From: Candidatus Tayloriibacteriota bacterium
GTDB taxonomy: Bacteria; Patescibacteriota; Minisyncoccia; Phycocordibacterales; CAIRYW01
Direction: 5' to 3'
Assembly (NCBI GenBank): GCA_028286725.1
Contig: JAQBQZ010000007.1
Span: 7,262 to 71,261, forward strand
DNA: 64,000 bases
The notes beneath the pieces are model-generated. The model was not told the origin of the DNA. It searched no databases and saw only the letters and a program-made list of their open reading frames with translations. The position numbers were made by a program, and so were the translations under genes. Within the stretch, counting starts at the first letter, position 1. Each line of letters starts with the position of its first letter. Positions 3,673 through 58,615 of the stretch are shown piece by piece.

Positions 3673-5547
3673 ATGGATAAAGATAATACAAAAAAGAAAG
3701 ACAACTCAACACCGCCAGCGCAACATGGTTTTGGTCGTGGAGGACCTATGGCTGGAATGGGTATGCCAGTACAAAAGCCGAAGAACTTTAAGGCGACAAT
3801 GCTAACGCTACTTCGATATTTGAAACCTTTTCGGCTGTCGATCGTGACTGTTTTGATCTTTGCTATTTTGAGTACAATATTTACGATTGTCAGTCCAAAG
3901 ATGCTCGGCGATGTGACGAATGATGTTGTTCAAGGGTTTATGAGTAAACAAATGGGCGGACCTGGTATTGATTATGGAGCAATCTGGAGCATTATCGAAC
4001 TCCTTGTTGGGCTTTATATTTTGAGTGCAATCTTTAGTTATATTCAAGGATGGATCATGTCTGGCGTATCTCAGCAGGTGACATTTAATTTAAGAAAAAA
4101 TATTTCAGAAAAGATAAACACTCTTCCTTTAAGTTATTTTGACAGTCGAACTCATGGAGAAGTGCTGAGTCGCGTCACAAACGATGTGGATACGGTGAGC
4201 CAGACATTGAACCAAAGTTTGACTCAGATCGTGACCGCAGTGACATCGCTTGTGGGAATTCTCATCATGATGCTTACGATCAGCTGGCAGATGACTTTGC
4301 TTGCGATCATTGTATTGCCTATAAGTTTTGGGCTCATTGGACTTGTTGTTGGAAGATCTCAAAAATATTTTATGACTCAGCAGGAATCTTTGGGCAAAAT
4401 AAACGGACACGTTGAAGAAATGTTTTCGGGACATACCGTGATGAAAGCGTTTAATGGTGAAGAAAAATCAATCAATACTTTTAAAAATATTAATAGTGAG
4501 CTTTATGATAGCGCATGGAAGTCACAGTTTTTCTCAGGACTTTTGATGCCGATCATGACATTTGTTGGAAACTTGGGATATGTTGGTGTGGCGGTTTTGG
4601 GAGGATGGCTTGCGATACAAGGCAAAATAAAGATCGGAGACATTCAGGCATTTATTCAATATATGAATCAGTTTACTCAGCCGATCACTCAAACTGCAAA
4701 CATTGCTAATGTGTTGCAGTCGACAGCTGCCGCTGCTGAACGAGTGTTTGAATTTCTTGGAGAAGAAAATGAGATCAAAGAAATTACGAATCCAGTCGTA
4801 TTGAAAGAAGTGAAAGGGGGAGTAGAATTTGAAAATATTGTGTTTGGGTATTCTCCAGAGAAGACTATTATTCATGGATTTACTGCAAGCATTAAGCCGG
4901 GGCAAAAAGTGGCGCTGGTAGGGCCTACTGGAGCTGGAAAGACTACGATGGTGAATCTCTTGATGCGATTTTATGATGTAAACAGTGGAGCCATAAAGAT
5001 CGATGGAGTTGATATTAGAGATTTGAGACGGGAGGATCTTCGTGCCCTTTTTGGAATGGTACTTCAGGATAGCTGGCTTTTTACAGGTACGATCGAAGAA
5101 AATATTGCATATGCAAAAGTGAATGCGACTCATGATGATGTGGTTCATGCTGCAGAAGCGGCTCATGCTGATCACTTTATTCGTGCACTTCCTGGTGGAT
5201 ATGGAATGAAACTCAATGAAGAAGCGGATAATATTTCTCAAGGTGAAAAACAGCTTTTGACTATTGCTCGAGCGATGCTCGCTGATACACCGATGCTCAT
5301 ACTTGATGAAGCGACAAGTTCTGTTGATACTCGAACAGAAACCTTGATCCAAAAAGCGATGGAGAAACTCATGCATGGACGAACAAGTTTCGTTATTGCC
5401 CATAGGCTCTCTACGATCAAAAATGCCGATCTTATACTTGTGATGCGAGATGGAAATATTGTTGAGCAGGGTAATCACGAAGCGCTCCTATCGCAAAATG
5501 GCTTCTACGCATCGCTTTATAACAGTCAGTTTGCAAACGAGAATTAG
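3673..5547 (+). CDS. ABC transporter permease/ATP-binding protein (type I exporter half, MdlB/YheH-like)
   Basis: 624 aa. Gly/Met-rich N-terminal extension, then a TMD. Walker A GPTGAGKTT, signature ISQGEKQLLTIARAM, Walker B LILDEATSSVD. Forms a heterodimeric pair with the upstream gene. Confidence 0.9.
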   Translation: MDKDNTKKKDNSTPPAQHGFGRGGPMAGMGMPVQKPKNFKATMLTLLRYLKPFRLSIVTVLIFAILSTIFTIVSPKMLGDVTNDVVQGFMSKQMGGPGIDYGAIWSIIELLVGLYILSAIFSYIQGWIMSGVSQQVTFNLRKNISEKINTLPLSYFDSRTHGEVLSRVTNDVDTVSQTLNQSLTQIVTAVTSLVGILIMMLTISWQMTLLAIIVLPISFGLIGLVVGRSQKYFMTQQESLGKINGHVEEMFSGHTVMKAFNGEEKSINTFKNINSELYDSAWKSQFFSGLLMPIMTFVGNLGYVGVAVLGGWLAIQGKIKIGDIQAFIQYMNQFTQPITQTANIANVLQSTAAAAERVFEFLGEENEIKEITNPVVLKEVKGGVEFENIVFGYSPEKTIIHGFTASIKPGQKVALVGPTGAGKTTMVNLLMRFYDVNSGAIKIDGVDIRDLRREDLRALFGMVLQDSWLFTGTIEENIAYAKVNATHDDVVHAAEAAHADHFIRALPGGYGMKLNEEADNISQGEKQLLTIARAMLADTPMLILDEATSSVDTRTETLIQKAMEKLMHGRTSFVIAHRLSTIKNADLILVMRDGNIVEQGNHEALLSQNGFYASLYNSQFANEN

Positions 5548-5550
5548 ACG

Positions 5551-5901
5551 ATGAAAATTAAAAGTGATTTTAGTGCGCGAGTTCTTCGAATAGCTTTGTC
5601 TATCCCTTTTGGAAAAATAATGACCTATGGCATGATCGCGCGAGCTGCAGGAGGTGGCGGACAAGCATCAAGAAGTGTGACTTCAATACTTGGTAAAGCT
5701 TATTTGAAAGATGAAAAGAATATTCCTTTTCATCGCATTGTGTATGCTGGAGGCAAAGTATGGCTTGATGAAAAACACGGACAGTCTCGCAAGAAATTAT
5801 ATAAAAAAGAAGGAATCATTTTGAATGATAAAGGCAAGATAACCAATTTTGAAGATGTGTTGTACGAACTATATTTGCCAAAATATCACGAAGAGCGTTA
5901 A
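5551..5901 (+). CDS. MGMT-family DNA-binding domain protein, alkyltransferase-like (ATL) with the nucleophile replaced
   Basis: 116 aa. The pattern IPFGKIMTYGMIARAAGG…ASRSV…NIPFHRIV aligns with the C-terminal domain of O6-alkylguanine alkyltransferases (PCHRV motif). The catalytic Cys is replaced by Phe (PFHRI). Confidence 0.6.
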   Translation: MKIKSDFSARVLRIALSIPFGKIMTYGMIARAAGGGGQASRSVTSILGKAYLKDEKNIPFHRIVYAGGKVWLDEKHGQSRKKLYKKEGIILNDKGKITNFEDVLYELYLPKYHEER

Positions 5902-14368: not shown

Positions 14369-14425
14369 ATTTTGTCTTAGTGTTCAAACTTACCTTGATC
14401 TGCTAGACTAATGCTAGAACCTAAC

Positions 14426-14607
14426 TCAAAATTAACCGCATATTAAAACATCTCAAAAACATGCTTGAATATCTAAAGTCAAAAATTTCAGTAAAAAATA
14501 AAGTTTCGTCAGTCAACATAACACAGTTATGCCTCCCTCCTCATCCTTCATTTTTTCCTTCGAAATTTTTGACTTTATATTATTCATTAATTTTAAGATA
14601 GGTTCTA
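14426..14607. repeat. intergenic repeat family, copy A (~180 bp)
   Basis: About 93% identical to 29422-29603 and ~75% identical to 50019-50130. Core sequence ATGCTTGAATATCTAAAGTCAAAAATTTCAGTAAAAAATAAAGTTTCGTCAGTCAACATAACACAGTTATGCCTCCCTCCTCATCCTTCATTTTTTCCTTCGAAATTTTTGAC. Contains a 12-bp stem (14478-14489 with 14562-14573). Confidence 0.8.
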
Positions 14608-15230
14608 TGAACAAATCAAGACTGGAGGCTTTTAGTGACGGAGTGTTTTCAATTGTTATGACCCTTCTTATATTTAATGTGAAGGTACCAGTACTGACAA
14701 AACCTTTTACAAATACTGATCTGTGGCTCTCGCTTGGAGCAGTGTGGCCGATTCTTTTTATCTATTTCCTTACATTCTTTGTATTGTCATTCTTCTGGAT
14801 CAATCATCATGTGCTTTTTGAGTCATTTGCAAAATCTATCGATCACAAGCTGACCGTTTTAAACCTTATTTATCTTATGTTTTTGGTGCTTGTGCCATTT
14901 ACGGCGAGTCTTTGGGGCGCATATGATTCTTATCAGCCAGCCGTCATATTGTATGGTTTTAATATTTTCATTATTGTTTTATGTTCAATGTGGATGGGGT
15001 CATACATTCTAAAAACTCCTGAGATCTCGCATGATGATATTACCGATCGAATGATCAAGAGGGGACAGTTTCGTTCAAGACTTACTCTTGTTTCTTATGC
15101 GATTGGGATCATTCTTTCCTTTGTCCATCCAGTTCTTGCTGGGCTTTTTTATCTGCTTCCTGTGGTATTTAATATTACTCCTGGCTCACTTAATTTTCTC
15201 GAAAAGAAATTGGGGTTTAAAATTGAATAA
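14607..15230 (+). CDS. TMEM175/DUF1211-family potassium channel
   Basis: MNKSRLEAFSDGVFSIVMTLLIF is the hallmark RxxxFSDGV motif. The six TM helices appear as two similar three-helix halves. Start moved from the annotated ATG at 14529 to the ATG at 14607 because the upstream 78 nt belong to the repeat element. Confidence 0.7.
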   Translation: MNKSRLEAFSDGVFSIVMTLLIFNVKVPVLTKPFTNTDLWLSLGAVWPILFIYFLTFFVLSFFWINHHVLFESFAKSIDHKLTVLNLIYLMFLVLVPFTASLWGAYDSYQPAVILYGFNIFIIVLCSMWMGSYILKTPEISHDDITDRMIKRGQFRSRLTLVSYAIGIILSFVHPVLAGLFYLLPVVFNITPGSLNFLEKKLGFKIE

Positions 15231-15277: not shown

Positions 15278-15949
15278 ATGCGTATTTTAGTTATTGAAGA
15301 CAATCAAAAGTTAGCCGAATCGCTTGTACGAGGGTTTACCCAAGAGGGGTATGCTGCTGACTTTGTATTAAATGGGGAAGAAGGTGAAAAGCGTATAATG
15401 ATATCTGAAAAAGATTACGATATGGTTATTTTAGATATTTCACTACCAGGAAAAAATGGGATCGAAATCTGCCGATCATTTCGGAGTCAGGGTATTATGA
15501 TTCCGATTATCATGCTCACAGCTCGAGATACGGTCAAGGATAAGATGCTTGGTCTTGATAGCGGTGCTGATGATTATGTTATAAAACCATTTTCACTTGG
15601 TGAATTACTTTCACGCGTCAGAGCATTATCGAGACGTCCGAGGAATTCACTTCCTCCTATTATTGAAGTGGGTGATCTCATTTTGAATCCTGCAAATCAA
15701 GAAGTCTTTCGAGGAAAAAAGAAAATTGAATTAACCCTAAAAGAATTTCGAATATTGGAATTTTTTATGACAAAACCAAATGAGGTGGTGACACGGCAAC
15801 AGATTACTGATCATTTATGGGATTTTGATTTTAATCCATTTAGTCGTGCTATGGATGTGCATATTAACAATTTGCGTAATAAAATTGGCAATAAAAATGA
15901 AACAAAGCTTGAAACGGTGCGAGGAGTGGGCTATCTCCTTAAAGCATAA
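15278..15949 (+). CDS. OmpR/PhoB-family response regulator
   Basis: 223 aa. Receiver domain (DMVILDISLPGKNG, phospho-acceptor Asp) followed by a winged-helix domain (…LTLKEFRILEFFMTKPNEVVTRQQI…VHINNLRNKI). Confidence 0.9.
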   Translation: MRILVIEDNQKLAESLVRGFTQEGYAADFVLNGEEGEKRIMISEKDYDMVILDISLPGKNGIEICRSFRSQGIMIPIIMLTARDTVKDKMLGLDSGADDYVIKPFSLGELLSRVRALSRRPRNSLPPIIEVGDLILNPANQEVFRGKKKIELTLKEFRILEFFMTKPNEVVTRQQITDHLWDFDFNPFSRAMDVHINNLRNKIGNKNETKLETVRGVGYLLKA

Positions 15950-19731: not shown

Positions 19732-21405
19732 TTATTTGGTCTCGCCATGAACATATTTATCGCCTCGCATCCACGAAGCGACGGCACCAACAAGAAAGAG
19801 AATAAGTGAGAATGTAAACACTATTTTAAGTCCGTGCATAAAAGGTTCTGAGATCAGATCTGGGAAAAATGATGAGCCAATAATTTCATTTCTATTTTCT
19901 TCTGGAAGTGCGGCTAGTGTATCTGTAGGAATGAGTTTGCTCATTGGATTGTAGCCGAGGAATGCGGCAAAGAGACTTGATACGGGTGGGGCACTCGCGA
20001 TCTGTATTGCGACTGTCTGGGACACTCCTTCTTTTATAAGCGCCTCGGACATCGACTTTGGAAGTGATGATGCGAGACCTGCAATCATGAGGCTAAAAAA
20101 TATTCCAATTGAAAGCACTTGGCCCACATTCATGGTTGTTGCTCGCATTCCAGATGCCTGACCTCTATCGCTTGCCGGCACGGAGTTCATGGTCCCTGTG
20201 GTGTTTGGGGAAGAAAATAATCCTACACCGATACCATTTAAAAGAAGAAGCAATGCAAAATTTAAGTACACAAAGTTTGCAGGTAGCGTCATAAGAAGTG
20301 CGAAACTTATCGCTCCAATGATCATTCCGCCTGTGGCAAAATATCTTGCACCATATTTGTCCGAAAGATATCCAGAGAGCGGTCCAACTAAAAGAAAACC
20401 AAGAGTGAGGGGGAGCATATAAATACCTGCCCAAAGTGGCGTGCTCTCAAAAGAATAATTATGAAGAGGAAGCCAGATTCCTTGAAGCCAAATAATGAGC
20501 ATAAACTGTAGTCCGCCTCTCCCGATCGATGAGAGAAGGTTGGCAATATTTCCTGCAGCGAATGCTTTGATCTTAAAAAGTTCGAGATTAAGCATTGGTG
20601 CTTTGATTTTCTTTTCAATAAAAGCAAACAGTACAAGCAAAAGAATTCCCCCGATAATTTCAGATAATACTTTTGGCGAAGTCCATCCCATAAGATGATT
20701 TCCGTACGGTTGAATACCGTAAGTGATGCCAACAAGAATCAAAATTAATCCTAACGCAAATGTAACATTGCCCCACCAGTCGATCTTGATATTTCTTTTT
20801 TCGTTAACTTCATGAAGTTTGAGATATGCCCACGCAGTACCGAAAATTCCAATCGGCACATTGATCCAAAATATGAGTCGCCAATTCCAGTCAGCAAGAA
20901 TTCCACCGAGTATGAGGCCAATGAACTGTCCTGCAAGCCCTGCGATAGTATTGATACCAAGTGCAAGTCCACGTTGTTCGGTAGGGAATGCGTCAACTAA
21001 AATTGCGGTAGAGTTCGCCATAAGAAGTGCTCCTCCTACACCTTGAAATATCCGCATAAGAATAAGATAAAGCGCCGCGCTTTCTCCTTGTCCAGGGGTC
21101 AGACTAAGTGCAATGGAAGCAAGCGTGAATATTAGGAATCCAAGATTGTACATTTTCACTCGTCCAAAAATATCACCCAATCGTCCAAGTGATACTACGA
21201 GTACACTGATGCAGACGAGGTATCCAAGGAGTGTCCAGAGAAGAAAGCTGATATTGCCTGGAAGAAGAGGGTCGAGATTGATACCTCGAAAGATTGCAGG
21301 AAGACTGATGATGACGATTGAACCGTCGAGAGCCGCCATAAAAATGCCCAATGTGGTATTGGAAAGCGCAGTCCATTTGTATCTATTTTTGGCCTTTTGA
21401 TCCAT
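19732..21405 (-). CDS. MFS transporter, DHA2 (14-TMS drug:H+ antiporter) family
   Basis: 557 aa. 14 predicted TM helices. MFS motif A-like GRLGDIFGR and the overall EmrB/QacA-type arrangement. Confidence 0.85.
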   Translation of the reverse strand: MDQKAKNRYKWTALSNTTLGIFMAALDGSIVIISLPAIFRGINLDPLLPGNISFLLWTLLGYLVCISVLVVSLGRLGDIFGRVKMYNLGFLIFTLASIALSLTPGQGESAALYLILMRIFQGVGGALLMANSTAILVDAFPTEQRGLALGINTIAGLAGQFIGLILGGILADWNWRLIFWINVPIGIFGTAWAYLKLHEVNEKRNIKIDWWGNVTFALGLILILVGITYGIQPYGNHLMGWTSPKVLSEIIGGILLLVLFAFIEKKIKAPMLNLELFKIKAFAAGNIANLLSSIGRGGLQFMLIIWLQGIWLPLHNYSFESTPLWAGIYMLPLTLGFLLVGPLSGYLSDKYGARYFATGGMIIGAISFALLMTLPANFVYLNFALLLLLNGIGVGLFSSPNTTGTMNSVPASDRGQASGMRATTMNVGQVLSIGIFFSLMIAGLASSLPKSMSEALIKEGVSQTVAIQIASAPPVSSLFAAFLGYNPMSKLIPTDTLAALPEENRNEIIGSSFFPDLISEPFMHGLKIVFTFSLILFLVGAVASWMRGDKYVHGETK

Positions 21406-23623: not shown

Positions 23624-24328
23624 TTGATGTTGAAATATCGAATCGAAATAGTTGTGAGTTTGTGTGTGTTGTTTGCACTTGGAATGGGCTATTCGCTCTA
23701 TACTAAGTTGTCGACATCTGCGCCAGATAATCAAATCCAAAATAAAACGGTGGAGAATTATGACGCAGCATCAACAACACCAGTATCAGAAACAACTGCA
23801 ACAGACGATAATTCAAAAACATTAACCAATAACACAAAAAAGGAAATGGAAAAAAAGACAGCAACAATGCACACAAATAAGGGAGATATCGAAATCGAAT
23901 TTTTTGACACGCTTACTCCAAATACAGTGGCAAACTTTGTAAAGCTCGCAAAGACTGGGTTTTATGACGGAGTCAAATTTCATCGAGTGATCAAAGGATT
24001 TATGATACAGGGCGGGGATCCTCTTTCAAAAGATGATACACAAAAATCAAGCTGGGGTACAGGAGGTCCGGGATACAAGTTTGACGATGAGCTTTCTCCT
24101 GAAAACAGCAATGTTACAGGCACTATTGCAATGGCAAATTCAGGACCTGATACAAACGGAAGTCAATTCTTCATCAATGTAAAAGATAATAATTTCTTGG
24201 ACACAAAACATACGGTGTTTGGCAAAGTAACAAAAGGTATGGATGTAGTAACTGCTATCGAAAATACTCCAGTAGATGGGTCAGACAAGCCAATCGACGC
24301 CATTATCATTCAAAGCATTAGTTTCTAA
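23624..24328 (+). CDS. ppiB: cyclophilin-type peptidyl-prolyl cis-trans isomerase, membrane-anchored
   Basis: N-terminal TM helix plus a low-complexity linker. Cyclophilin core HTNKGDIEIEFFD…FHRVIKGFMIQGGDP…GTIAMANSGPDTNGSQFFIN…KHTVFGKV. Confidence 0.9.
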   Translation: MMLKYRIEIVVSLCVLFALGMGYSLYTKLSTSAPDNQIQNKTVENYDAASTTPVSETTATDDNSKTLTNNTKKEMEKKTATMHTNKGDIEIEFFDTLTPNTVANFVKLAKTGFYDGVKFHRVIKGFMIQGGDPLSKDDTQKSSWGTGGPGYKFDDELSPENSNVTGTIAMANSGPDTNGSQFFINVKDNNFLDTKHTVFGKVTKGMDVVTAIENTPVDGSDKPIDAIIIQSISF

Positions 24329-24349
24329 CTAATATAATTTAGCACTCAG

Positions 24350-24397
24350 AAAATGCACCGAAATTGACTCTGTCAATTTCGGTGCATTTTCTTTCTG
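24350..24397 (+). terminator. Rho-independent terminator
   Basis: Perfect 18-bp stem AAAATGCACCGAAATTGA / TCAATTTCGGTGCATTTT with loop CTCTG, followed by CTTTCTG. Confidence 0.7.
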
Positions 24398-27423: not shown

Positions 27424-29247
27424 ATGAATCCTGAAGATCCTAACAAAGTAGTCTATTTTGCTGAAACAGATGCGCGTAATCGCAAACTTCGTTTTGGTAT
27501 CAAAATAAAAGACCGATCTCGACATACCTACGTCATCGGTAAGACGGGAATGGGTAAATCAACTCTTCTTGAAAATCTTGCTGTCCAGGATATTCAAGAT
27601 GGACGAGGTCTCGCATTTCTCGATCCTCACGGCAAGACTGCGGACCTTCTGCTTGAATATGTTCCAGAAGAAAGAATGAAGGATGTGCTTTATTTTGCAC
27701 CTTTTGATCTCGACAATCCTATCTCATTCAATGTGCTCGAAGACGTGGGTGCAGACAAAAGACACTTGGTTGCCAACGGTCTCATGTCTGCTTTCAAAAA
27801 GATCTGGGTGGATGCATGGAGCGCCCGAATGGAATATATTTTAAATAATATTTTGCTTGCTCTTCTTGAATATCCAGACTCAACACTCATTGGTGTTAAC
27901 AGAATTTTGGCAGACGAAGACTATCGTAAAAAAGTGATCGAACATATTACTGATCCATCAGTGCGTTCTTTCTGGGTGGATGAGTTTGCAAAGTACGGAC
28001 CAAAATATATGCAGGAAGCAGGAGCCTCAATTCAAAACAAGATTGGTCAGTTTATTTCGAATCCTCTTATTCGAAACATTATCGGCCAGCCAAAATCAAC
28101 TTTTGATATTCGAGAAATGATGGATAACAAAAAGATTATTATCATGAACCTTTCAAAAGGTCTTGTAGGTGAAGCGAATGCCAACCTCTTGGGTGCGATG
28201 CTCATTACCAAGATCTATCTTGCTGCCATGAGTCGTGCGGATAAAAGAGAAGCAGAACTCGCAGAGCTTCCGAACTTCTATCTTTATGTAGATGAGTTTC
28301 AGAACTTTGCTAACGAATCGTTTGCAGATATTCTTTCTGAAGCGCGAAAATATAAACTGAACCTTACTGTTGCACATCAGTATATCGAGCAAATGACAGA
28401 AGAAGTGCGAGCTGCAGTGTTTGGAAACGTGGGAACAATGATCACTTTTCGAGTAGGCGCTTTTGATGCGGAATTTTTAGAAAAAGAATATGGACCGTTC
28501 TTTACGGCACAAGATCTAGTATCGCTCGGATTTGCTCAGATTTATTTAAAACTGATGATCGATGGTGTATCTTCAAGGCCGTTTTCTGCCATAACACTTG
28601 CACCTCTTGCAAAACCTGATCACAATCTTCGGGAAAAAATAATAGAATTATCTCGACAGACTTTCGCTCGTCGGCGAGTCGATGTTGAAAATGAGATCAA
28701 GGCTTGGCATGAAGAAGCTCAGGTTTCTACTTATGGGAATAACAATCGTAGCGGAGGTAATGGAGAGAGGTCTGCAAAAAGATCAGATCATGGAAACGGA
28801 AATGCAAGACCAAGTCCTATTGATCAAGCTCTTGCAGCAGTATTAGGTAAAGCACCAGCACCAAAGCCAGTACAACAAATATCACAATCAAATCCACAGT
28901 CAAATACTAGTGAGCAAAAAAGAGATCCTGCATATGATAGAGAACGAGATCTTCGTAAGGCGGTATCCTTAAGCTATTTGAGACAGACGAATCAAAAACC
29001 AAAGGAGAAAAAGCTTCCTTCAGAGGAGCATCTTGCGGATCTTCGAAGTGCACTGGCTGCTGTTGTGTCATCAGAGGCTCTTCCAGAAGCTCCAAAGGCT
29101 GAGCCTTCTCCGAGACCAATTCATCATGCATCACCAGTTCAAGAAAAAGCTCCAGAAAGAAAAGAGCCTACAAACCCTGAAGTAAAACAAGAAGAAAAAA
29201 GAGAGGTGCCTGAGGATATTTTGAAAAGAATTCTTGAAATTCAATAA
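27424..29247 (+). CDS. VirD4/TraG/TraD-like type IV coupling-protein-family P-loop ATPase, with a long disordered C-terminal tail
   Basis: 607 aa. Walker A GKTGMGKST, Walker B FYLYVDEFQNF, then NLTVAHQY (the TraG/VirD4 ATQS-like motif). No TM segment. The last ~170 aa are P/A/K/E/S/Q-rich low complexity. Confidence 0.55.
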   Translation: MNPEDPNKVVYFAETDARNRKLRFGIKIKDRSRHTYVIGKTGMGKSTLLENLAVQDIQDGRGLAFLDPHGKTADLLLEYVPEERMKDVLYFAPFDLDNPISFNVLEDVGADKRHLVANGLMSAFKKIWVDAWSARMEYILNNILLALLEYPDSTLIGVNRILADEDYRKKVIEHITDPSVRSFWVDEFAKYGPKYMQEAGASIQNKIGQFISNPLIRNIIGQPKSTFDIREMMDNKKIIIMNLSKGLVGEANANLLGAMLITKIYLAAMSRADKREAELAELPNFYLYVDEFQNFANESFADILSEARKYKLNLTVAHQYIEQMTEEVRAAVFGNVGTMITFRVGAFDAEFLEKEYGPFFTAQDLVSLGFAQIYLKLMIDGVSSRPFSAITLAPLAKPDHNLREKIIELSRQTFARRRVDVENEIKAWHEEAQVSTYGNNNRSGGNGERSAKRSDHGNGNARPSPIDQALAAVLGKAPAPKPVQQISQSNPQSNTSEQKRDPAYDRERDLRKAVSLSYLRQTNQKPKEKKLPSEEHLADLRSALAAVVSSEALPEAPKAEPSPRPIHHASPVQEKAPERKEPTNPEVKQEEKREVPEDILKRILEIQ

Positions 29248-29379: not shown

Positions 29380-29421
29380 TTTCAAATTAGATCATTTTGT
29401 GGCATAATCAGTAGAATCTAT

Positions 29422-29603
29422 CTCAAAATTAACCGCATAAGTAATTATAAACCAATGCTTGAATATCTAAAGTCCAAAATTTCGGTAAAAAATGAAGTTT
29501 CGTCAGTCAACATAACACAGTTATGTCTCCTTCCTCATCCTTCATTTTTTCCTGCGAAATTTTGGTCTTTATCTTATTCATTAATTTTGAGATAGATTCT
29601 AAA
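29422..29603. repeat. intergenic repeat family, copy B
   Basis: About 93% identical to copy A over ~150 bp. Stem 29472-29484 with 29555-29567 carries a compensatory A-U to C-G change relative to copy A. Confidence 0.8.
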
Positions 29604-30827
29604 ATGCAACATAAGAAGCGAATACTTATATTTTCCCTTGTATATTACCCAAATTTTATAGGTGGTGCAGAAGTTGCAATCAAGGAAATTACTGATCGAC
29701 TAGGGCACGCCCAAGGGACTTTTGATACACAAAACTCCAGTGGGCAAGCTTTTGAGTTTGATATGGTAACACTTCATCTTGATTCACATCTCCCAAAGGT
29801 AGAGCGAATTGGCAACGTCACAATTCACCGTGTTGGTTGGACAAGTGATGAAAATGTGTCCGCAGATTCACTTCCAAAATCACTCCATTTAAATAAATAT
29901 GCGATGCTCCTAACAGCATTTTGGGAGGCGATGAGACTCCAGCATAAACACAAATACGATATTATTTGGAGTATGATGGCAACGTACAATTCCTTTGCGG
30001 CGCTCTTTTTCAAACTTTTGAATCCAAAAGTAAAATTCCTTCTGACACTTCAAGAAGGGGATCCAATTCCATTCATCAAACGCCGTGCACGACCTCTCTG
30101 GCCTCTTTTTAAGATGATATTTACTCGCGCAGACACTATTCAAGCTATTTCAAAATATCTTGCTGACTTCGGAATTGAAATGGGGGCGAAGTGTCCTGTG
30201 GTTGTGGTACCAAATGCGGTTGATATAAAACACTTTACACAAGAATATTCTGTCGAAGAGATAAATGAGATCAAAAAAAAGCTGAACAAAAAAGAAGGAG
30301 ACATATTTTTGATTACCACATCACGTCTTGTGACCAAAAACGCAGTAGAGGATATTGTTAAGGCAATGCCGTTACTTCCAGAAAATATCAAGCTCGTTAT
30401 TGCAGGAAGAGGATATTTGGAAGATTCAATCCGTAAGCTTTCGGTAATGCTTGGGGTAGAGAATCGAATTCAATTTTTGGGCTGGCTCACACACACTGAT
30501 ATGCCAAAGTATCTTAAAGCCTCAGATATATTCATTCGTGTACCGATTTCAGAAGGATTCGGTAATTCATTTGTTGAGGCGATGGCATGTGGACTTCCTT
30601 GTGTTACAACTCCTGTGGGTGGAATCTTGGATTTTCTTCGAGACCGTGAGACGGGAATATTTGCAGAAGTTCGTAATCCTGAAAGTGTAGCAAAAGCAGT
30701 GACGGAACTCGTCCGTAATCCAGAACTTGTGTCCCGGATAAAACGACAGTCTTTTGAAATGGTCAAAGAAAAATATGATTGGCCAATGATTGCAGATGAA
30801 ATGAAGAAGGTGTTTTTAAATATATAA
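29604..30827 (+). CDS. GT4-family glycosyltransferase
   Basis: Start set at the ATG at 29604, after the repeat element. GT4 C-terminal motif ISEGFGNSFVEAMACGLPCVTTPVGG…ETG. Confidence 0.85.
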   Translation: MQHKKRILIFSLVYYPNFIGGAEVAIKEITDRLGHAQGTFDTQNSSGQAFEFDMVTLHLDSHLPKVERIGNVTIHRVGWTSDENVSADSLPKSLHLNKYAMLLTAFWEAMRLQHKHKYDIIWSMMATYNSFAALFFKLLNPKVKFLLTLQEGDPIPFIKRRARPLWPLFKMIFTRADTIQAISKYLADFGIEMGAKCPVVVVPNAVDIKHFTQEYSVEEINEIKKKLNKKEGDIFLITTSRLVTKNAVEDIVKAMPLLPENIKLVIAGRGYLEDSIRKLSVMLGVENRIQFLGWLTHTDMPKYLKASDIFIRVPISEGFGNSFVEAMACGLPCVTTPVGGILDFLRDRETGIFAEVRNPESVAKAVTELVRNPELVSRIKRQSFEMVKEKYDWPMIADEMKKVFLNI

Positions 30828-48413: not shown

Positions 48414-49466
48414 TTATTGTGTTTTAACTTTAAGTTCTTGTTCTGCGAGCTTCATATCAGAATCGATCATTATTTTGACCAAGTCTTCGAATTTTGTCTT
48501 TGGTTCCCATCCAAGCTTTTCTTTAGCTTTTGCCGGATCACCAATAAGGAGATCAACTTCTGCTGGTCTAAAATATGCAGGATCAATCTCGAGGATTGTT
48601 TTTTGTGTTTTTGTATCAATTGCTTTTTCTTCAACACCCTGACCTTGCCATTCGATATTCATATCAAGATGCTTCGCAGCAATATTTACGAACTCTCGGA
48701 CTGAATGAGTTTCGTTTGTTGCAAGAAGGAAGTCATCGGGCATTTCTGCTTGAAGCATAAGCCACGCGCCTTCCATGTAATCTTTTGCAAATCCCCAGTC
48801 TCTTTTTGAATCAATATTTCCAAGGAAAAGCGTTTCTTGAAGTCCTAGCTTGATTCTCGTCAGTGCTCGCGTAATCTTTCGTGTTACGAAAGTCTCGCCT
48901 CGCCGAGGAGATTCGTGGTTGAATAGAATTCCGTTAACAGCAAACATGTTATAGCTCTCACGATAGTTTTTTGTGATCCAGTACGCGTAGACCTTTGCGC
49001 ATCCATAGGGAGATCGCGGGTAAAACGGAGTAGTTTCCTTTTGAGGAATCTCTTGGACAAGTCCAAACATTTCTGATGATGATGCTTGATAGAACTTGAT
49101 CTTTTTTTTACTTTCTCTAATCGCATCAAGAATACGGAGCGTACCCAAGCCGTCAATATCAGACGTGTATTCTGGCATATCAAAACTTACCTTTACGTGG
49201 CTTTGAGCGCCTAGATTGTAGACTTCGTCAGGCTGGATCTTCTCGATAAGACGAGAAATGTTGCTAGAGTCGGAGAGGTCGCCATAATGCAAGAAAAATT
49301 TCACATCTTTGCTGTGTCTGTCTTGATAAATATGATTGATACGCTCAGTATTGAATGATGACGATCTGCGAACAATGCCATGTACCTCATATCCCTTTTC
49401 AAGTAATATATCCGCAAGATATGACCCGTCTTGGCCGGTAATTCCTGTTATCAAAGCTTTTTTCAT
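48414..49466 (-). CDS. gmd: GDP-mannose 4,6-dehydratase
   Basis: [43 protein letters not shown] is the canonical Gmd N-terminus. Catalytic YxxxK region [10 protein letters not shown]. Confidence 0.9.
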
Positions 49467-49543: not shown

Positions 49544-49996
49544 ATGAAAAAAAAAGGAGTTGAAAAAGTGGTGGCGGTAAGCGGGGGATTTGATCCGATC
49601 CATATTGGGCATATTCGAATGTTCGAAGAGGCGAGAAGACTTGGAGATAAGCTTGTAGTGATCTTGAACAATGATAACTGGCTCCAGAAGAAGAAAGGAT
49701 ATGTCTTTATGGATGAAAAAGAGAGAAAAGAGATATTGTTGTCGCTTCGATCGGTTGATGAGGTGGTTATTACGAAACATAAAAAAAATACAACCGACAT
49801 GAGTGTTTGTGATGCATTAAGAGCAGTAAAGCCTGATATTTTTGCAAACGGAGGTGATAGGACAAAGAAAAATATTCCAGAGATACCGGTCTGTAAAGAG
49901 ATTGGCTCTAAAATGGTCTTTTCTGTTGGAAAAGGTGGAAAAGTGCAGTCGAGCTCCTGGCTCGTCAACAAAAGTGTGAACCTAAGACAAAAATAA
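49544..49996 (+). CDS. cytidylyltransferase-like nucleotidyltransferase (HldC / RfaE-domain-II-like sugar-phosphate nucleotidyltransferase)
   Basis: 150 aa. VVAVSGGFDPIHIGHIRMFEEARRLGDKLVVIL carries the HxGH motif. C-terminal part resembles RfaE domain II. Confidence 0.7.
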   Translation: MKKKGVEKVVAVSGGFDPIHIGHIRMFEEARRLGDKLVVILNNDNWLQKKKGYVFMDEKERKEILLSLRSVDEVVITKHKKNTTDMSVCDALRAVKPDIFANGGDRTKKNIPEIPVCKEIGSKMVFSVGKGGKVQSSSWLVNKSVNLRQK

Positions 49997-50018
49997 TCGC
50001 TAAATAAATACCTAAAAT

Positions 50019-50130
50019 AGCTTGAACCCTCATAATCCAAAATTTTGGTAAAAAACCAAGTTTCGTCGGTCGCCATACCACAGGTATGCCTCCCTCCTCA
50101 TCCTTTGTTTTTTCCTTCATAATTTTGAAT
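50019..50130. repeat. intergenic repeat family, copy C (shorter and more divergent)
   Basis: GCTTGAACCCTCATAATCCAAAATTTTGGTAAAAAACCAAGTTTCGTCGGTCGCCATACCACAGGTATGCCTCCCTCCTCATCCTTTGTTTTTTCCTTC aligns with copies A and B at ~75% identity. Confidence 0.65.
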
Positions 50131-50225
50131 TATGAGGTGTCCATTATTTTTGACTTAGGTTCAAAAAGTAGTAGTATTTAGACCTACATTAATTATTAAT
50201 TTACTAGCTGTTTATATATTAAAGA

Positions 50226-52586
50226 ATGAATAATTTTATTTTAAAAACGATCAAGATCCTGCTTTGCGCGCTACCTCTCGTTTCGATTGTGGTAGCTGAT
50301 TCGATGTTCTTTCCATTTATTACTGGCAAGGCATTTTTGTTCCGTGTTGCTATTGAGCTCATTACTTGTCTTTATATTGCTCTTGCATTTGCCGATCCTC
50401 GCTTTCGACCAAAGAACAACAAGCTTCTTGTGGCTTTTGGGACTTTTGTAGGAATCATTTTTGTTGCTGATATTTTTGCTGTGGATGCCTCAAAAGCCTT
50501 CTTTAGTAATTTTGAAAGAATGGAAGGGTTCGTACTCTTGGCGCACCTTTTTGCATATTTTCTGGTTCTCATAAATGTCTTCAAAGAAAAGAAAGATTGG
50601 ATAATGATGATTGGATCAAATGTTGCCGTTTCTGTATTTATGACATTCTTTGCATACTTGCAGTTCTTTGGCGGAGCTGTCATCAACCAAGGAGGTGTGC
50701 GACTTGATGGAACACTCGGCAACTCTGCATATATGGCGACATATATGCTCTTCAATATTTTCTTCTTGATCTACCTATGGTTCTCAAATGGCAACAAAGT
50801 TAAAGGGATTAGCGATATTATTATCGGAGGTTCATCACTATATATAGTCTATTATCTCTATGAACTTTCTAAAAAAGGTCTTGATTATAGCCTTGCTGGA
50901 GGAGTTATATTGGCAATTGTGCTCCTTGCGCTGCTTAAAGCGTGCTGGTTTAGGTTTGGAGATACATTCAAAAAATTTGATCACCTTTATGCACTATCGG
51001 TCTATAGTATTTTGATCATTGCTCAAATAATCATTCTTTATTACACGGCAACTCGTGGAGCAATATTGGGACTCATCGGAGGACTTTTGCTCACTGCAAT
51101 AATAATCGCAATCACCGAAAAAGAGCATAGGCATATAAAAAATGTATCAATCGCTGTTATTGCGATTCTCTTTGTTGTTGTTTTTGGATTTATACTTATT
51201 AAAAACACTTCGTTTGTAAAGAACAGTCCGGTACTTACTCGGTTTGCTTCTATCTCTATTGATGACACAAAGACTCAGGCTCGATCAATCATCTGGCCTA
51301 TGGCTATTGATGCATTCAAAGAAAAGCCGGTGCTAGGATGGGGACAAGATAACTTTATAATTGCATTTGCAGAGTACTATAGACCAGAAATGATTCGTCA
51401 CGAGCCGTGGTTTGACCGAACACATAATGCATTCCTTGATTGGCTGATAGCTGGGGGAATATTAGGATATATTGGATACCTATCGCTGTATGTTTTTGCA
51501 CTTCGAGGACTTTGGAAAAGTGCAATGTTTACGAAAAGAGAGAAAGCTGTTTTGATCGGTTTGTTTTCTGCATATGCATTCCAAAATCTTTTCATCTTCG
51601 ACAACCTCATAAGCTATATGTTGTTTATTCTTCTTCTTGGACTCTCAAATCTTGATGTTAGTACAGAGGAGAGCAAGAAAAATGTTTCTGAAGAGATTGG
51701 TGCGCCGCTACTTGCATCTGTTGTTGTGATATTCGTGATCATTCTTTTGCTTGTAAATTATCGACCATATGAGCAGAATATTACCCTCTCTCAAGGCATC
51801 GGCCAGCAACAAGAAGGTGTAACAAAAAATCTTTCTCTATTAAAACAAGCGCTCTCATATGGTCCAACGGGAGAATTCGAGACAACAGAGCAAATGGATC
51901 GAATTGCTATGGATGTACTCGGCTCAGCTCAAGTAGCAGATCAAGACAAAAATGATTTTGGTCTCGCAACACTCGATGCTCTTAAGGCAGAAGTTGCGAA
52001 GCATCCTAAAGATGTAAGAACTTATATCAATCTTGGTTCATTTGAAGCGGATGTTGGAATGTCTGATGATGCAATTCCTGTTCTTGAACAGGCGAAAGTG
52101 CTTTCTCCAAAAAAGCAGCAAATCTATTTTTCTTTGGCTAAAGCGTATTTCTTGAAGGGGGACAAAGAAAAGGATCAATCATATACAGACAAGGCTCTGG
52201 AAACTCTTAAGTATGCATATGATCTTGCTCCAGGATTCGATGCGCCAAAATTGATCTATGCGCAGTCTCTTGCTGTCACAGGACACATTGCAGAGGGTGT
52301 TGCAATTGCAAAGACAATGGATAATCCAGGGGACTTTACTACTCCCGCAGTCGTGAAGATAATGGTAGAAAACGGACATGCAGACGATGCTGTCTCGGTG
52401 CTTGAAATTGCTATAAAAGCCGATCCTACAAACAAGTCCCTTTATACACTTGTTTCAGATATTTATACATTTAAGAAGGATAAGGCAAAGGCGATTGAGT
52501 GGCTCAAGGCTCTTGAGGTGGCTTTACCGAGCGCAACTGATGAAGCTGAGCAGGATATCGTAAAAGTGAACGCAGCCTTGAAGTAA
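50226..52586 (+). CDS. O-antigen ligase/polymerase (Wzy_C) family membrane protein with C-terminal TPR-like domain
   Basis: 786 aa. About 12 TM helices. A large loop between helices with the RGAILGLIGGLLL pattern typical of the Wzy_C/WaaL/PglL family. Roughly 280 aa of C-terminal soluble alpha-helical repeats. Confidence 0.7.
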   Translation: MNNFILKTIKILLCALPLVSIVVADSMFFPFITGKAFLFRVAIELITCLYIALAFADPRFRPKNNKLLVAFGTFVGIIFVADIFAVDASKAFFSNFERMEGFVLLAHLFAYFLVLINVFKEKKDWIMMIGSNVAVSVFMTFFAYLQFFGGAVINQGGVRLDGTLGNSAYMATYMLFNIFFLIYLWFSNGNKVKGISDIIIGGSSLYIVYYLYELSKKGLDYSLAGGVILAIVLLALLKACWFRFGDTFKKFDHLYALSVYSILIIAQIIILYYTATRGAILGLIGGLLLTAIIIAITEKEHRHIKNVSIAVIAILFVVVFGFILIKNTSFVKNSPVLTRFASISIDDTKTQARSIIWPMAIDAFKEKPVLGWGQDNFIIAFAEYYRPEMIRHEPWFDRTHNAFLDWLIAGGILGYIGYLSLYVFALRGLWKSAMFTKREKAVLIGLFSAYAFQNLFIFDNLISYMLFILLLGLSNLDVSTEESKKNVSEEIGAPLLASVVVIFVIILLLVNYRPYEQNITLSQGIGQQQEGVTKNLSLLKQALSYGPTGEFETTEQMDRIAMDVLGSAQVADQDKNDFGLATLDALKAEVAKHPKDVRTYINLGSFEADVGMSDDAIPVLEQAKVLSPKKQQIYFSLAKAYFLKGDKEKDQSYTDKALETLKYAYDLAPGFDAPKLIYAQSLAVTGHIAEGVAIAKTMDNPGDFTTPAVVKIMVENGHADDAVSVLEIAIKADPTNKSLYTLVSDIYTFKKDKAKAIEWLKALEVALPSATDEAEQDIVKVNAALK

Positions 52587-57541: not shown

Positions 57542-58615
57542 ATGAAAGAAAGCAAACTTGAGATCTATATTTATTTTATTCTCCTTGGAATTACCTTATT
57601 TGTGACCTACAAGATATTTGAGCCATATCTTTTTGCGATCGTTGTGGCGCTTATATTTTCTGTTATTTTTGGTCCGCTCAACAAAAGAGTTGAAAAAAGT
57701 TTTCCAAAACACAAATCTCTTTCTGCTCTCGTAACACTCTTTATTGTATTTATTCTCGTGCTTTTACCATTCATTCTCTACGGTATTCAGCTTTCAGATG
57801 AAGTGAAAAATTTTTATGATTATGCTTTTACATCAATGCAGGGCAGTGGTGGCATAATGGCAAAGCTTACCATTGTTGCAAACAATATCATTACTACATT
57901 CTCACCTTTAGGAGTTCATTGGCCTGTGTTTGATGTGTCAGAGACTGAAAGTTATGTCTTTGCCGGGCTCTCTTGGCTTCGAGGGCATTTTGGAGATATC
58001 TTTTCAGGACTCGCAAAATTCTTTGTAGATATATTCATATTCCTTATTGCATTTTATTATTTCCTACGCGACGGATCAGCGCTTCGAAAAAGAGTTATTG
58101 ACCTTAGTCCTTTTCCCGATAATCGCGATGAAGAAATACTGGAGAAGCTTCGACTTGCGGTTCTTTCTGTTGTTCGAGGTTCAATGCTTGTAGCGCTTAC
58201 TCAGGGAATTATGACGGGCTTAGGATTTTATTTCTTTGGTATTCCTTCAGCCCTCCTTTGGGGAGGTGTAACAGTGATTGCTGCTCTTGTGCCAGGTGTT
58301 GGAACATCTCTCGTGATCGTGCCAGGGATTCTTTATCTATTCTTCACAGGAGAAAGTACTCACGCATTCGGTCTTCTTCTTTGGGGAGGTGCTTGCGTCG
58401 GACTTATTGATAATTTCCTTGGTCCAAAGCTTATCGAAAAGGGTATTAATATTCATCCACTCCTTATACTCCTTTCTGTACTTGGAGGAATCGCATACTT
58501 TGGTGTGATCGGATTTATTTTAGGGCCTATTGTACTTTCATTCCTATTTACACTTTTTGAAATCTACAAGCCTATCATTCTTAAAGAGTCGCATTCTCAT
58601 ACTCATACACGATAA
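57542..58615 (+). CDS. AI-2E-family transporter (PerM/YhhT-like, UPF0118)
   Basis: 357 aa, 7-8 TM helices. Conserved GGVTVIAALVPGVGTSLVIVPG region. Confidence 0.8.
   Translation: MKESKLEIYIYFILLGITLFVTYKIFEPYLFAIVVALIFSVIFGPLNKRVEKSFPKHKSLSALVTLFIVFILVLLPFILYGIQLSDEVKNFYDYAFTSMQGSGGIMAKLTIVANNIITTFSPLGVHWPVFDVSETESYVFAGLSWLRGHFGDIFSGLAKFFVDIFIFLIAFYYFLRDGSALRKRVIDLSPFPDNRDEEILEKLRLAVLSVVRGSMLVALTQGIMTGLGFYFFGIPSALLWGGVTVIAALVPGVGTSLVIVPGILYLFFTGESTHAFGLLLWGGACVGLIDNFLGPKLIEKGINIHPLLILLSVLGGIAYFGVIGFILGPIVLSFLFTLFEIYKPIILKESHSHTHTR

Follow-up and report, generated by a model that had tools for sequence, protein, structure and literature searches.

This report concerns a sequence block that occurs three times in a 64,000-nucleotide stretch (the window) of contig JAQBQZ010000007.1, from a Candidatus Tayloriibacteriota bacterium of the Patescibacteria or candidate phyla radiation (CPR). 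[quoted passage not shown] They display the hallmarks of such elements, namely a small size, within the range of roughly 50-1000 bp typical of MITEs, without a transposase or conserved open reading frame (ORF), terminal inverted repeats (TIRs), an apparent target-site duplication, dispersed copies, and TIRs shared with an autonomous element. A first-pass annotation, made from the sequence alone, had offered a MITE-like mobile repeat as one of several options for this block, and it is this option that the TIRs, the IS-identical ends, the dispersal and the empty sites support. Patescibacterial genomes, at about 1 Mb, are usually described as poor in mobile DNA. The element represents a new MITE family that has multiplied within several CPR lineages of the Paceibacteria type; our literature search found no description of MITEs in CPR/Patescibacteria, and the element has no match in Rfam.

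Distribution, ends and insertion sites

Searches of the window with blastn and with a covariance model (R1) recovered the block three times, always on the plus strand, and no fourth copy. The spans first assigned to the copies were real but covered only part of each, the true ends being 21-bp TIRs. The third copy, previously taken for a short version of 112 bp, proved to be full-length: model R1 matches it from end to end at 164.9 bits, and copy A, likewise over its full length, at 176.7 bits. The identities also required revision, that of copies A and B from about 93% to 85.9% over the 182-bp span first assigned (90.7% over the last 150 bp), and that of A and C from about 75% to 78.8% over the C span first assigned and 71.5% over the full length. 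Overall, copies measure 177-196 bp, and neither the ATG nor the reading frames are conserved between them; the description of the block as a non-coding repeat conserved at the nucleotide level, with complementary arms and compensatory changes, stands. Exact look-ups with the window proteins gave one Logan contig as the sole match. It comes from the same strain and starts within copy A, which is the break expected of an assembly at a repeat.

A separate hairpin in the window, with a perfect 22-bp stem (AGAAAATGCACCGAAATTGAC-TCT-GTCAATTTCGGTGCATTTTCT, 24347-24393, followed by TTCTTTCT), lies just 3' of the gene at 23624-24328 and is probably an intrinsic terminator. It gave a weak covariance-model match (31 bits) because its CGAAATT..GAC arms resemble the inner stem of the MITE.

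The suggestion that related CPR genomes be searched for further copies proved productive. A scan of one genome per species, using a pattern from the two most conserved blocks, returned 48 loci (cited below by L numbers, as are other contigs and loci), and in 33 of these nhmmer and the covariance model identified further full-length copies, at non-homologous positions in about 20 Patescibacteria metagenome-assembled genomes (MAGs). The remaining loci are chance pattern matches in unrelated bacteria. Carriage by phages or viruses was considered and rejected, as no phage match was found and the sole pattern match in a viral contig arose by chance and lacked a covariance-model match. The hosts are labelled Taylorbacteria, Zambryskibacteria, Paceibacterota and, for several MAGs, 'Saccharibacteria'. 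Individual MAGs hold at least 5, 4, 3 and 2 copies with different flanks, in addition to the three in this 64-kb window, and copies are more alike within a genome (81% identity) than between genomes (65%), which points to amplification of the family within lineages. We make no claim of spread across CPR classes, since the 'Saccharibacteria' labels of these third-party-annotation (TPA) MAGs are unreliable: L038 ('Candidatus Saccharibacteria', CAYGDK01) is identical to L024 (Paceibacterota, JBBAAE01) over the MITE and its flanks, and L006, also labelled 'Saccharibacteria', is collinear with L005 from Zambryskibacteria.

The termini connect the element with a known class of transposase. In a metagenome scan with the TIR alone as the query, TAGAAYCYATYTCAAAAWTAA was found in at least 120 contigs; among the contigs listed, the CPR-type element is present in L059 only, and the others carry insertion sequences or other short elements. 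The same 18-21-bp TIR bounds insertion sequences of 821-845 bp, with TA flanks and 18-bp inverted repeats, whose 257-aa product combines a DUF4096 with a DDE_Tnp_1 domain. This protein scores 215 bits against the NCBIfam model NF033580 for IS5-family transposases (cut-off 110). The transposase is encoded by a single ORF in L058 and is split over two frames in L099, L062 and L166; it belongs to a very large family (4601 matches at E <= 1e-40), in which its nearest annotated relatives are IS5-family transposases of Deinococcus (ISDds9-like) and Leptospira with about 50% identity. Members of the IS427 group are tabulated as having a length of about 0.8-0.87 kb, inverted repeats of 13-21 bp, a 2-bp direct repeat and a DDE transposase often encoded by two frameshifted ORFs (PMC3281130), and the size, inverted repeats, 2-bp direct repeat and frameshifted ORFs of the partner IS fit this table. 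By sequence, the partner IS matches the IS5 family with IS427-group features, the subgroup being judged only from size, inverted repeats, direct repeat and reading frames. Its presence on contigs of 35-57% GC indicates that the TIR group spans many host lineages. In metagenome contigs the same TIR also bounds many other short MITE families of 59-308 bp, including a very abundant, GC-richer family of 144 bp (TAGAACCTATCTCAAAAATAAGATTAGGGTTCAGGGCAAGGCG...; L065, L075, L076, L085, L091 and others). The earlier statement that the block was not recognized as any known element family has to be amended, its termini being shared with an IS5-family insertion sequence that shows IS427-group features.

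Two reconstructions of empty sites, at copy A and at L006, support insertion at a TA dinucleotide accompanied by its duplication. When the flanks of copy A are joined by a single TA they read GCTAGACTAATGCTATGAACAAATC; this site, ...GCTAGACTAATGC-TA-TGAACAAATC..., aligns without gaps to the region upstream of the TMEM175 gene in relatives (L002, L003 and L004), which reads ...GCTAGAATAGAGC-TA-TGAATAAAG.... Removal of the L006 copy, again leaving one TA, yields a sequence collinear with the orthologous topA upstream region of L005. A third pair, the occupied L026 and the empty site at window position 57542, shares 42% identity and is too distant for base-level inference.

In the mechanism that we propose, an IS5-family transposase supplied in trans would recognize both ends, excise the element and insert it at a TA dinucleotide, duplicating the latter. 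In compact, AT-rich genomes the surviving insertions would be those at the few tolerated TA sites, which lie in or beside stop codons, or between the -10 box and the ATG of apparently leaderless genes lacking a Shine-Dalgarno (SD) motif. The interior, a nested palindrome around a conserved asymmetric core, would have its complementarity kept at the DNA level in propagating lineages, perhaps by arm-to-arm correction in extruded hairpins or by a requirement in propagating master copies, whereas single copies would then decay by random mutation.

Several observations weigh against this model. TA is found at the left end of 20 of the 32 aligned copies, at the right end of 19 and at both ends of only 14; as TA is palindromic, the flanking TA may instead be part of the TIR, and without the second TA copy A would not retain its ATG. 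The empty sites for copy A come from different species with 68-70% protein identity, and no within-species presence/absence polymorphism was found, the comparisons being between species, with the closest relative at 73% protein identity. A TIR-only hidden Markov model, clustering of neighbour proteins and tblastn detected no such transposase in the window or in the 8-kb CPR loci. There is also no detectable similarity between the interiors of the MITE and the IS, so that derivation by internal deletion is not supported. Finally, we know of no need of a cut-and-paste DDE transposase for an internal palindrome or a conserved asymmetric core, and both features are left unexplained by the MITE model.

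A nested palindrome around a conserved core

The whole element is a near full-length imperfect palindrome, closed by the 21-bp TIRs. These form helix 1, found in every one of the 32 aligned copies, where 92% of its cells are paired; within the window, complementarity over the 21 bp is 21/21 in copy B, 20/21 in C and 19/21 in A, where the last A of the right TIR is also the A of the ATG start at 14607-14609. The 12-bp arms at 14478-14489 and 14562-14573, separated by a 72-nt loop, are as originally described, but they belong to a longer stem of 16 bp, itself one of five helices nested over the full length of the element. Copy B does carry the reported double change from A-T to C-G, with a new T.T mismatch next to it. 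Folding z-scores of the window copies lie between -5 and -10 relative to shuffles on both strands. Other MITE families with the same TIR are also internally structured (median z of -4.1 with the interior alone shuffled), indicating that internal palindromy is general to the TIR group rather than specific to CPR.

The covariation was assessed in a MAFFT alignment of 32 copies, made without use of structure. RNAalifold predicted the full hairpin from this alignment, with compensatory double changes in 36 of 53 pairs; under the specified structure, 92.6% of cells are paired and double changes occur in 35 of 52 pairs, a value reached by none of 500 shuffles, while slid controls yield 15-20. The compensatory change first noticed between two copies thus generalizes strongly across the family. 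Its interpretation as selection on an RNA fold is not supported, as the wobble signature of such selection is missing. An A-C pair on the plus strand is a G-U pair on the minus strand, and for an RNA fold one would expect G-U to be tolerated and A-C to be avoided on the transcribed strand. Against 1481 Watson-Crick cells, the plus strand has 55 G-U cells, 26 of them at a single column, and 39 A-C cells; without that column the counts are 29 and 39. Splitting the copies by host-transcribed strand gives 11/17 and 17/21 for G-U/A-C (Fisher p = 0.80), with transversion-type mismatches outnumbering both kinds. Strictly Watson-Crick, strand-symmetric covariation without G-U tolerance on the host-transcribed strand points to a palindrome at the DNA level followed by random decay, rather than to a selected RNA fold. 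The numbers of Watson-Crick pairs in the window copies (50/51 in B, 47/51 in A and 46/51 in C) are consistent with this. With such excellent covariation statistics the element could readily be mistaken for a structured regulatory RNA, and the tests of strand symmetry and of wobble on the transcribed strand offer a cheap way of telling a DNA palindrome from a selected RNA fold. The exceptional column belongs to alignment positions 83/153 (14491 with 14559 in copy A, a G.T pair there), where G stands opposite T in 26 of the 32 copies, in either orientation. This conserved departure from Watson-Crick pairing borders helix 3, beside an internal loop.

The most conserved part of the element is the core, in which GTTTCGTCAGTC and CCTCCYTCCTCATCC flank a variable hairpin. 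This conservation is partly imposed by the genome-scan pattern, which selected for the core blocks; nevertheless, the core is intact in the diverged copy C. In L059, a copy selected by its TIR, nothing differs in the 3' block, and the only disruption of the 5' block is a nested hairpin inserted into it. L108 (761-921), a 161-bp MITE bounded by the same TIR, contains the core in diverged form, ATTTCGTCGGC - hairpin - TCCTCCTCAATC, which suggests that this module predates the CPR family.

Two copies (L059:2306-2528 and L022:3362-3636) carry an extra insertion of 30-85 bp inside the core, that of L059 being a small GC-rich hairpin with a CTTCGG loop, placed between GTTTCG and TCAGTC; the core hence tolerates or attracts nested insertions. 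A likeness of the minus-strand core (GAUGAG...CUGACGAAAC) to the hammerhead ribozyme was examined and rejected, as C3/U4, stem I and the cleavage site are absent and no Rfam ribozyme matches.

Table 1. Positions of the element copies, their parts and the adjoining gene features in the window
Feature	Positions	Strand	Remarks
MITE copy A	14415..14607	+	193 bp including flanking TA at 14415-14416 and 14606-14607; from blastn, covariance model R1 and empty-site reconstruction
MITE copy B	29412..29601	+	190 bp; perfect 21-bp TIR; 50/51 Watson-Crick pairs; best-preserved window copy
MITE copy C	49976..50164	+	About 189 bp; older and more diverged; degenerate flanking dinucleotides GT...AA
Left TIR, copy A	14415..14435	+	TAGAACCTAACTCAAAATTAA; matches TIR of IS5-family insertion sequences
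Right TIR, copy A	14587..14607	+	TTAATTTTAAGATAGGTTCTA; 19/21 complementary to left TIR
5' arm of inner 16-bp inverted repeat (helix 3)	14474..14489	+	Pairs with 14562-14577
3' arm of inner 16-bp inverted repeat (helix 3)	14562..14577	+	Pairs with 14474-14489
Core, 5' block	14503..14514	+	GTTTCGTCAGTC; asymmetric, conserved, unpaired in the fold
Apical hairpin (helix 5)	14517..14531	+	CATAAC-ACA-GTTATG; sequence varies between copies, pairing kept; ATG not conserved
Core, 3' block	14532..14546	+	CCTCCCTCCTCATCC; asymmetric, conserved; the pyrimidine tract
-10-like hexamer TAGACT, TMEM175-like gene	14404..14409	+	Native; insertion now between hexamer and ATG
TMEM175-like gene (PF06736)	14607..15230	+	True length 207 aa
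-10-like hexamer CATAAT, glycosyltransferase gene	29403..29408	+	Preceded by TGG; native, as judged from window geometry
Glycosyltransferase (Glycos_transf_1 / Glyco_transf_4) gene	29604..30827	+	Starts 2 nt after copy B
Last six codons and stop of upstream gene (VNLRQK*)	49976..49996	+	Encoded by left end of copy C
O-antigen-ligase (Wzy_C) / TPR gene	50226..52586	+	62 nt downstream of copy C; own TATATT + 5 nt + ATG

Gene starts beside the copies and alternative readings

The genes of the window are essentially devoid of SD motifs (upstream 50 nt of about 60 ORFs), and many operon-leading genes have a TATAAT-like hexamer that ends 5-9 nt before the ATG (for example those at 27424, 57542 and 25583, and on the minus strand 19732-21405 and 48414-49466). 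This suggests, from sequence, that leaderless mRNAs are widespread in this Taylorbacteria MAG. In copy A, copy B and L006 the insertion target falls within the 6-9 nt that separate such a -10-like hexamer from the downstream ATG. L002, L003 and L004 have TAGAAT followed by 6-7 nt and the ATG at the site of copy A, where the corresponding TAGACT would act as the promoter -10 box; with copy B taken out, CATAAT-CAGTAAA-ATG is obtained in place of the occupied CATAAT-CAG-[element]-AA-ATG. The right TIR itself contains a TAnnnT motif in copy A (TAAGAT, 7 nt from the ATG) and in copy B (TAGATT, 5 nt), and 8 of 18 start-adjacent ends have one at a leaderless-type distance. Sigma-70 and terminator scans around the three copies gave results no better than shuffles.

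The first-pass annotation also noted in-frame ATGs upstream of two of these genes. They exist, at 14529 and 29523, inside the MITE, and the longest-ORF calls that start from them (14529-15230 and 29523-30827) add 26-27 spurious residues. For the TMEM175-like gene, translation does not truly begin at the upstream ATG: the 70 full-length homologues listed are all of about 207 aa, and the public gene call of this MAG alone gives 233 aa, so that the true start is the ATG at 14607 and the call from 14529 is an annotation artefact. Hence the element not only breaks assemblies but also causes wrong start-codon calls, with 233 aa predicted for a 207-aa protein. The gene whose end is supplied by copy C (49544-49996) is cytidylyltransferase-like.

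In the other genomes both orientations relative to the flanking genes occur (about 12 against about 18), and a start codon lies within 12 nt of one end in 18 of the 33 copies. Eight copies have a stop close to one end and a start close to the other, a few nt away in each case, and there the element makes up the entire intergenic spacer; in many, a stop codon overlaps the terminal TAG, or the 3' end of a gene reaches 16-28 nt into the element. The start-adjacent genes include scpA, a heavy-metal P-type ATPase, Tyr/Trp-tRNA synthetase, topA, rsmH, a Mur ligase and ksgA, and the copy at L025:5320-5512 ends 18 nt upstream of tRNA-Arg(TCT) (5530-5602). Among the neighbours of these 33 copies there is no link to envelope genes or two-component systems. 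The original placement upstream of three envelope genes is therefore true of the window copies but does not extend to the copies elsewhere, which adjoin housekeeping genes and a tRNA.

These data bear on the other explanations that the block had invited. A strand-specific cis-regulatory leader RNA common to envelope genes, acting as a riboswitch, an attenuator or by sequestration of an anti-SD tract, might seem to be favoured by the shared orientation of the three window copies upstream of membrane or glycan genes, by the conserved core and covarying helices, and by the GAAA apical loops of several copies on the plus strand. However, with both orientations and unrelated neighbours in other genomes, strand-symmetric covariation lacking a wobble signature, and termini that are transposon TIRs, we consider it very unlikely; moreover, Rfam 15 gave no match in the whole window at the gathering threshold, and only chance miRNA- or snoRNA-like hairpin matches even at E <= 10. 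The anti-SD-like tract reported in the loop does lie within the conserved core, but the ATG reported with it falls in the variable apical hairpin and is not conserved, and in a genome that does not use SD motifs such a tract has nothing to sequester. That ATG likewise decides the case of a small protein, encoded either on the minus strand (where copies A, B and C have AGGAGG followed by ATG and similar peptides, MLTDET...) or on the plus strand, where the ATG of A and B would add an in-frame N-terminal extension to the downstream gene. The start codon sits in the covarying apical hairpin and in other copies is replaced by complementary sequence without a start or is frame-shifted, copies differ by changes that compensate pairwise and show no bias to synonymous sites, and the TMEM175-like homologues have no extension; small ORFs on both strands are hence rejected, and we regard coding as scarcely credible. 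It is just as hard to accept that the block is a DNA-binding module for the adjacent OmpR-family response regulator (15278-15949), as had also been proposed. The distance from copy A to the regulator gene downstream of it is about 670 bp, but no two-component gene adjoins copy B, copy C or any of the 33 copies elsewhere. OmpR/PhoB-type regulators bind tandem direct-repeat half-sites, and the element is a 190-bp palindrome without these.

A different kind of proposal adds to the MITE reading rather than excluding it: the element might also have an RNA- or promoter-level role that keeps SD-less, leaderless genes expressed, via RNase III cleavage of its hairpin, by bringing an upstream stop or the mRNA 5' end to the AUG, or through a -10 box provided by its ends. 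The frequency of nearby starts and of copies that form the whole stop-to-start spacer would agree with such a role, as would the probably essential nature of several adjoining genes (topA, Tyr/Trp-tRNA synthetase, rsmH, ksgA and scpA), the location of copies A and B between the hexamer and the ATG of SD-less genes with TAnnnT 5-9 nt before the ATG, and the TAnnnT motifs in their right TIRs. One study reports that Correia elements in Neisseria create promoters at their ends and serve as substrates of RNase III (PMC2649163). On the other hand, there is no excess of G-U on the host-transcribed strand and the mismatches resemble random decay, a suitably placed TAnnnT is present in fewer than half of the start-adjacent ends, and promoter-like sites are no commoner than in shuffles; we therefore view the added role as possible but doubtful. 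A bolder version, which we hold to be rather unlikely, takes the hairpin and core to be adaptive, allowing insertions to be survived in tightly packed CPR genomes with SD-less, leaderless genes. RNase III would trim the hairpin on the transcript, or else the hairpin would place the 5' end or stop beside the AUG, so that leaderless or coupled initiation continues, with the ends sometimes giving a replacement -10 box. If true, this would constitute a 'self-silencing' transposon architecture and a natural probe of CPR translation initiation. Insertions 0-5 nt upstream of housekeeping starts, at apparently leaderless-type promoters, in any case pose the testable question of how expression survives.

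Relationship to known mobile and palindromic repeats

In architecture the MITE family resembles Correia, ERIC and other IS-derived MITEs, and by sequence its termini place it with IS5 elements. Its closest counterparts are the IS427-group insertion sequences and the MITEs sharing their TIRs: the first 18-21 bp of its termini are identical to those of the 821-845-bp IS, and the TA at both ends is consistent with the 2-bp direct repeat of that group. It differs from them in its unrelated interior, nested palindrome and asymmetric core, and its hosts are ultra-small Patescibacteria, with no partner IS seen in the 8-kb loci or the window.

Correia elements (CREE) of Neisseria occur near gene starts, frequently in shared transcripts, and have TA flanks. 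Like the present element, they are intergenic mobile repeats of about 100-200 bp with TIRs and a conserved core. The likeness is architectural only, with no obvious sequence resemblance seen, although no direct alignment to Correia sequences was made; self-complementarity in the CPR element extends beyond the TIRs to almost its whole length, and for this element one can name a plausible transposase family. ERIC elements are imperfect palindromes of 100-200 bp that lie between the genes of operons in either orientation and keep their hairpin through compensatory changes. The CPR element is comparable to these, and to RUP and other repeats palindromic over their whole length, in size, intergenic location, occurrence in either orientation and compensatory changes; it differs from ERIC and RUP in having TIRs that clearly match an IS and a TA duplication supported by empty sites, as well as in its host clade.

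MITEs with IS5-type TIRs have been described in other bacteria, namely BrickBuilt, MITE293 and MITE700 of Porphyromonas gingivalis and ATR of Neisseria, whose TIRs are identical or nearly so to those of resident IS5-family elements and which retain no transposase remnant (PMC4596501). The CPR family differs from these in TIR sequence, internal architecture and hosts, and BrickBuilt carries a minisatellite.

Rickettsia palindromic elements (RPE) are palindromic repeats that can add coding sequence to host genes, in frame and inside ORFs. Some likeness to these exists in that copy C contributes codons and a stop to the gene at 49544-49996, other copies overlap gene 3' ends by 16-28 nt, and copies A and B create in-frame upstream extensions of ORFs. 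The present copies, however, are situated at gene ends and in spacers rather than inside ORFs, and their N-terminal extensions are not conserved in homologues.

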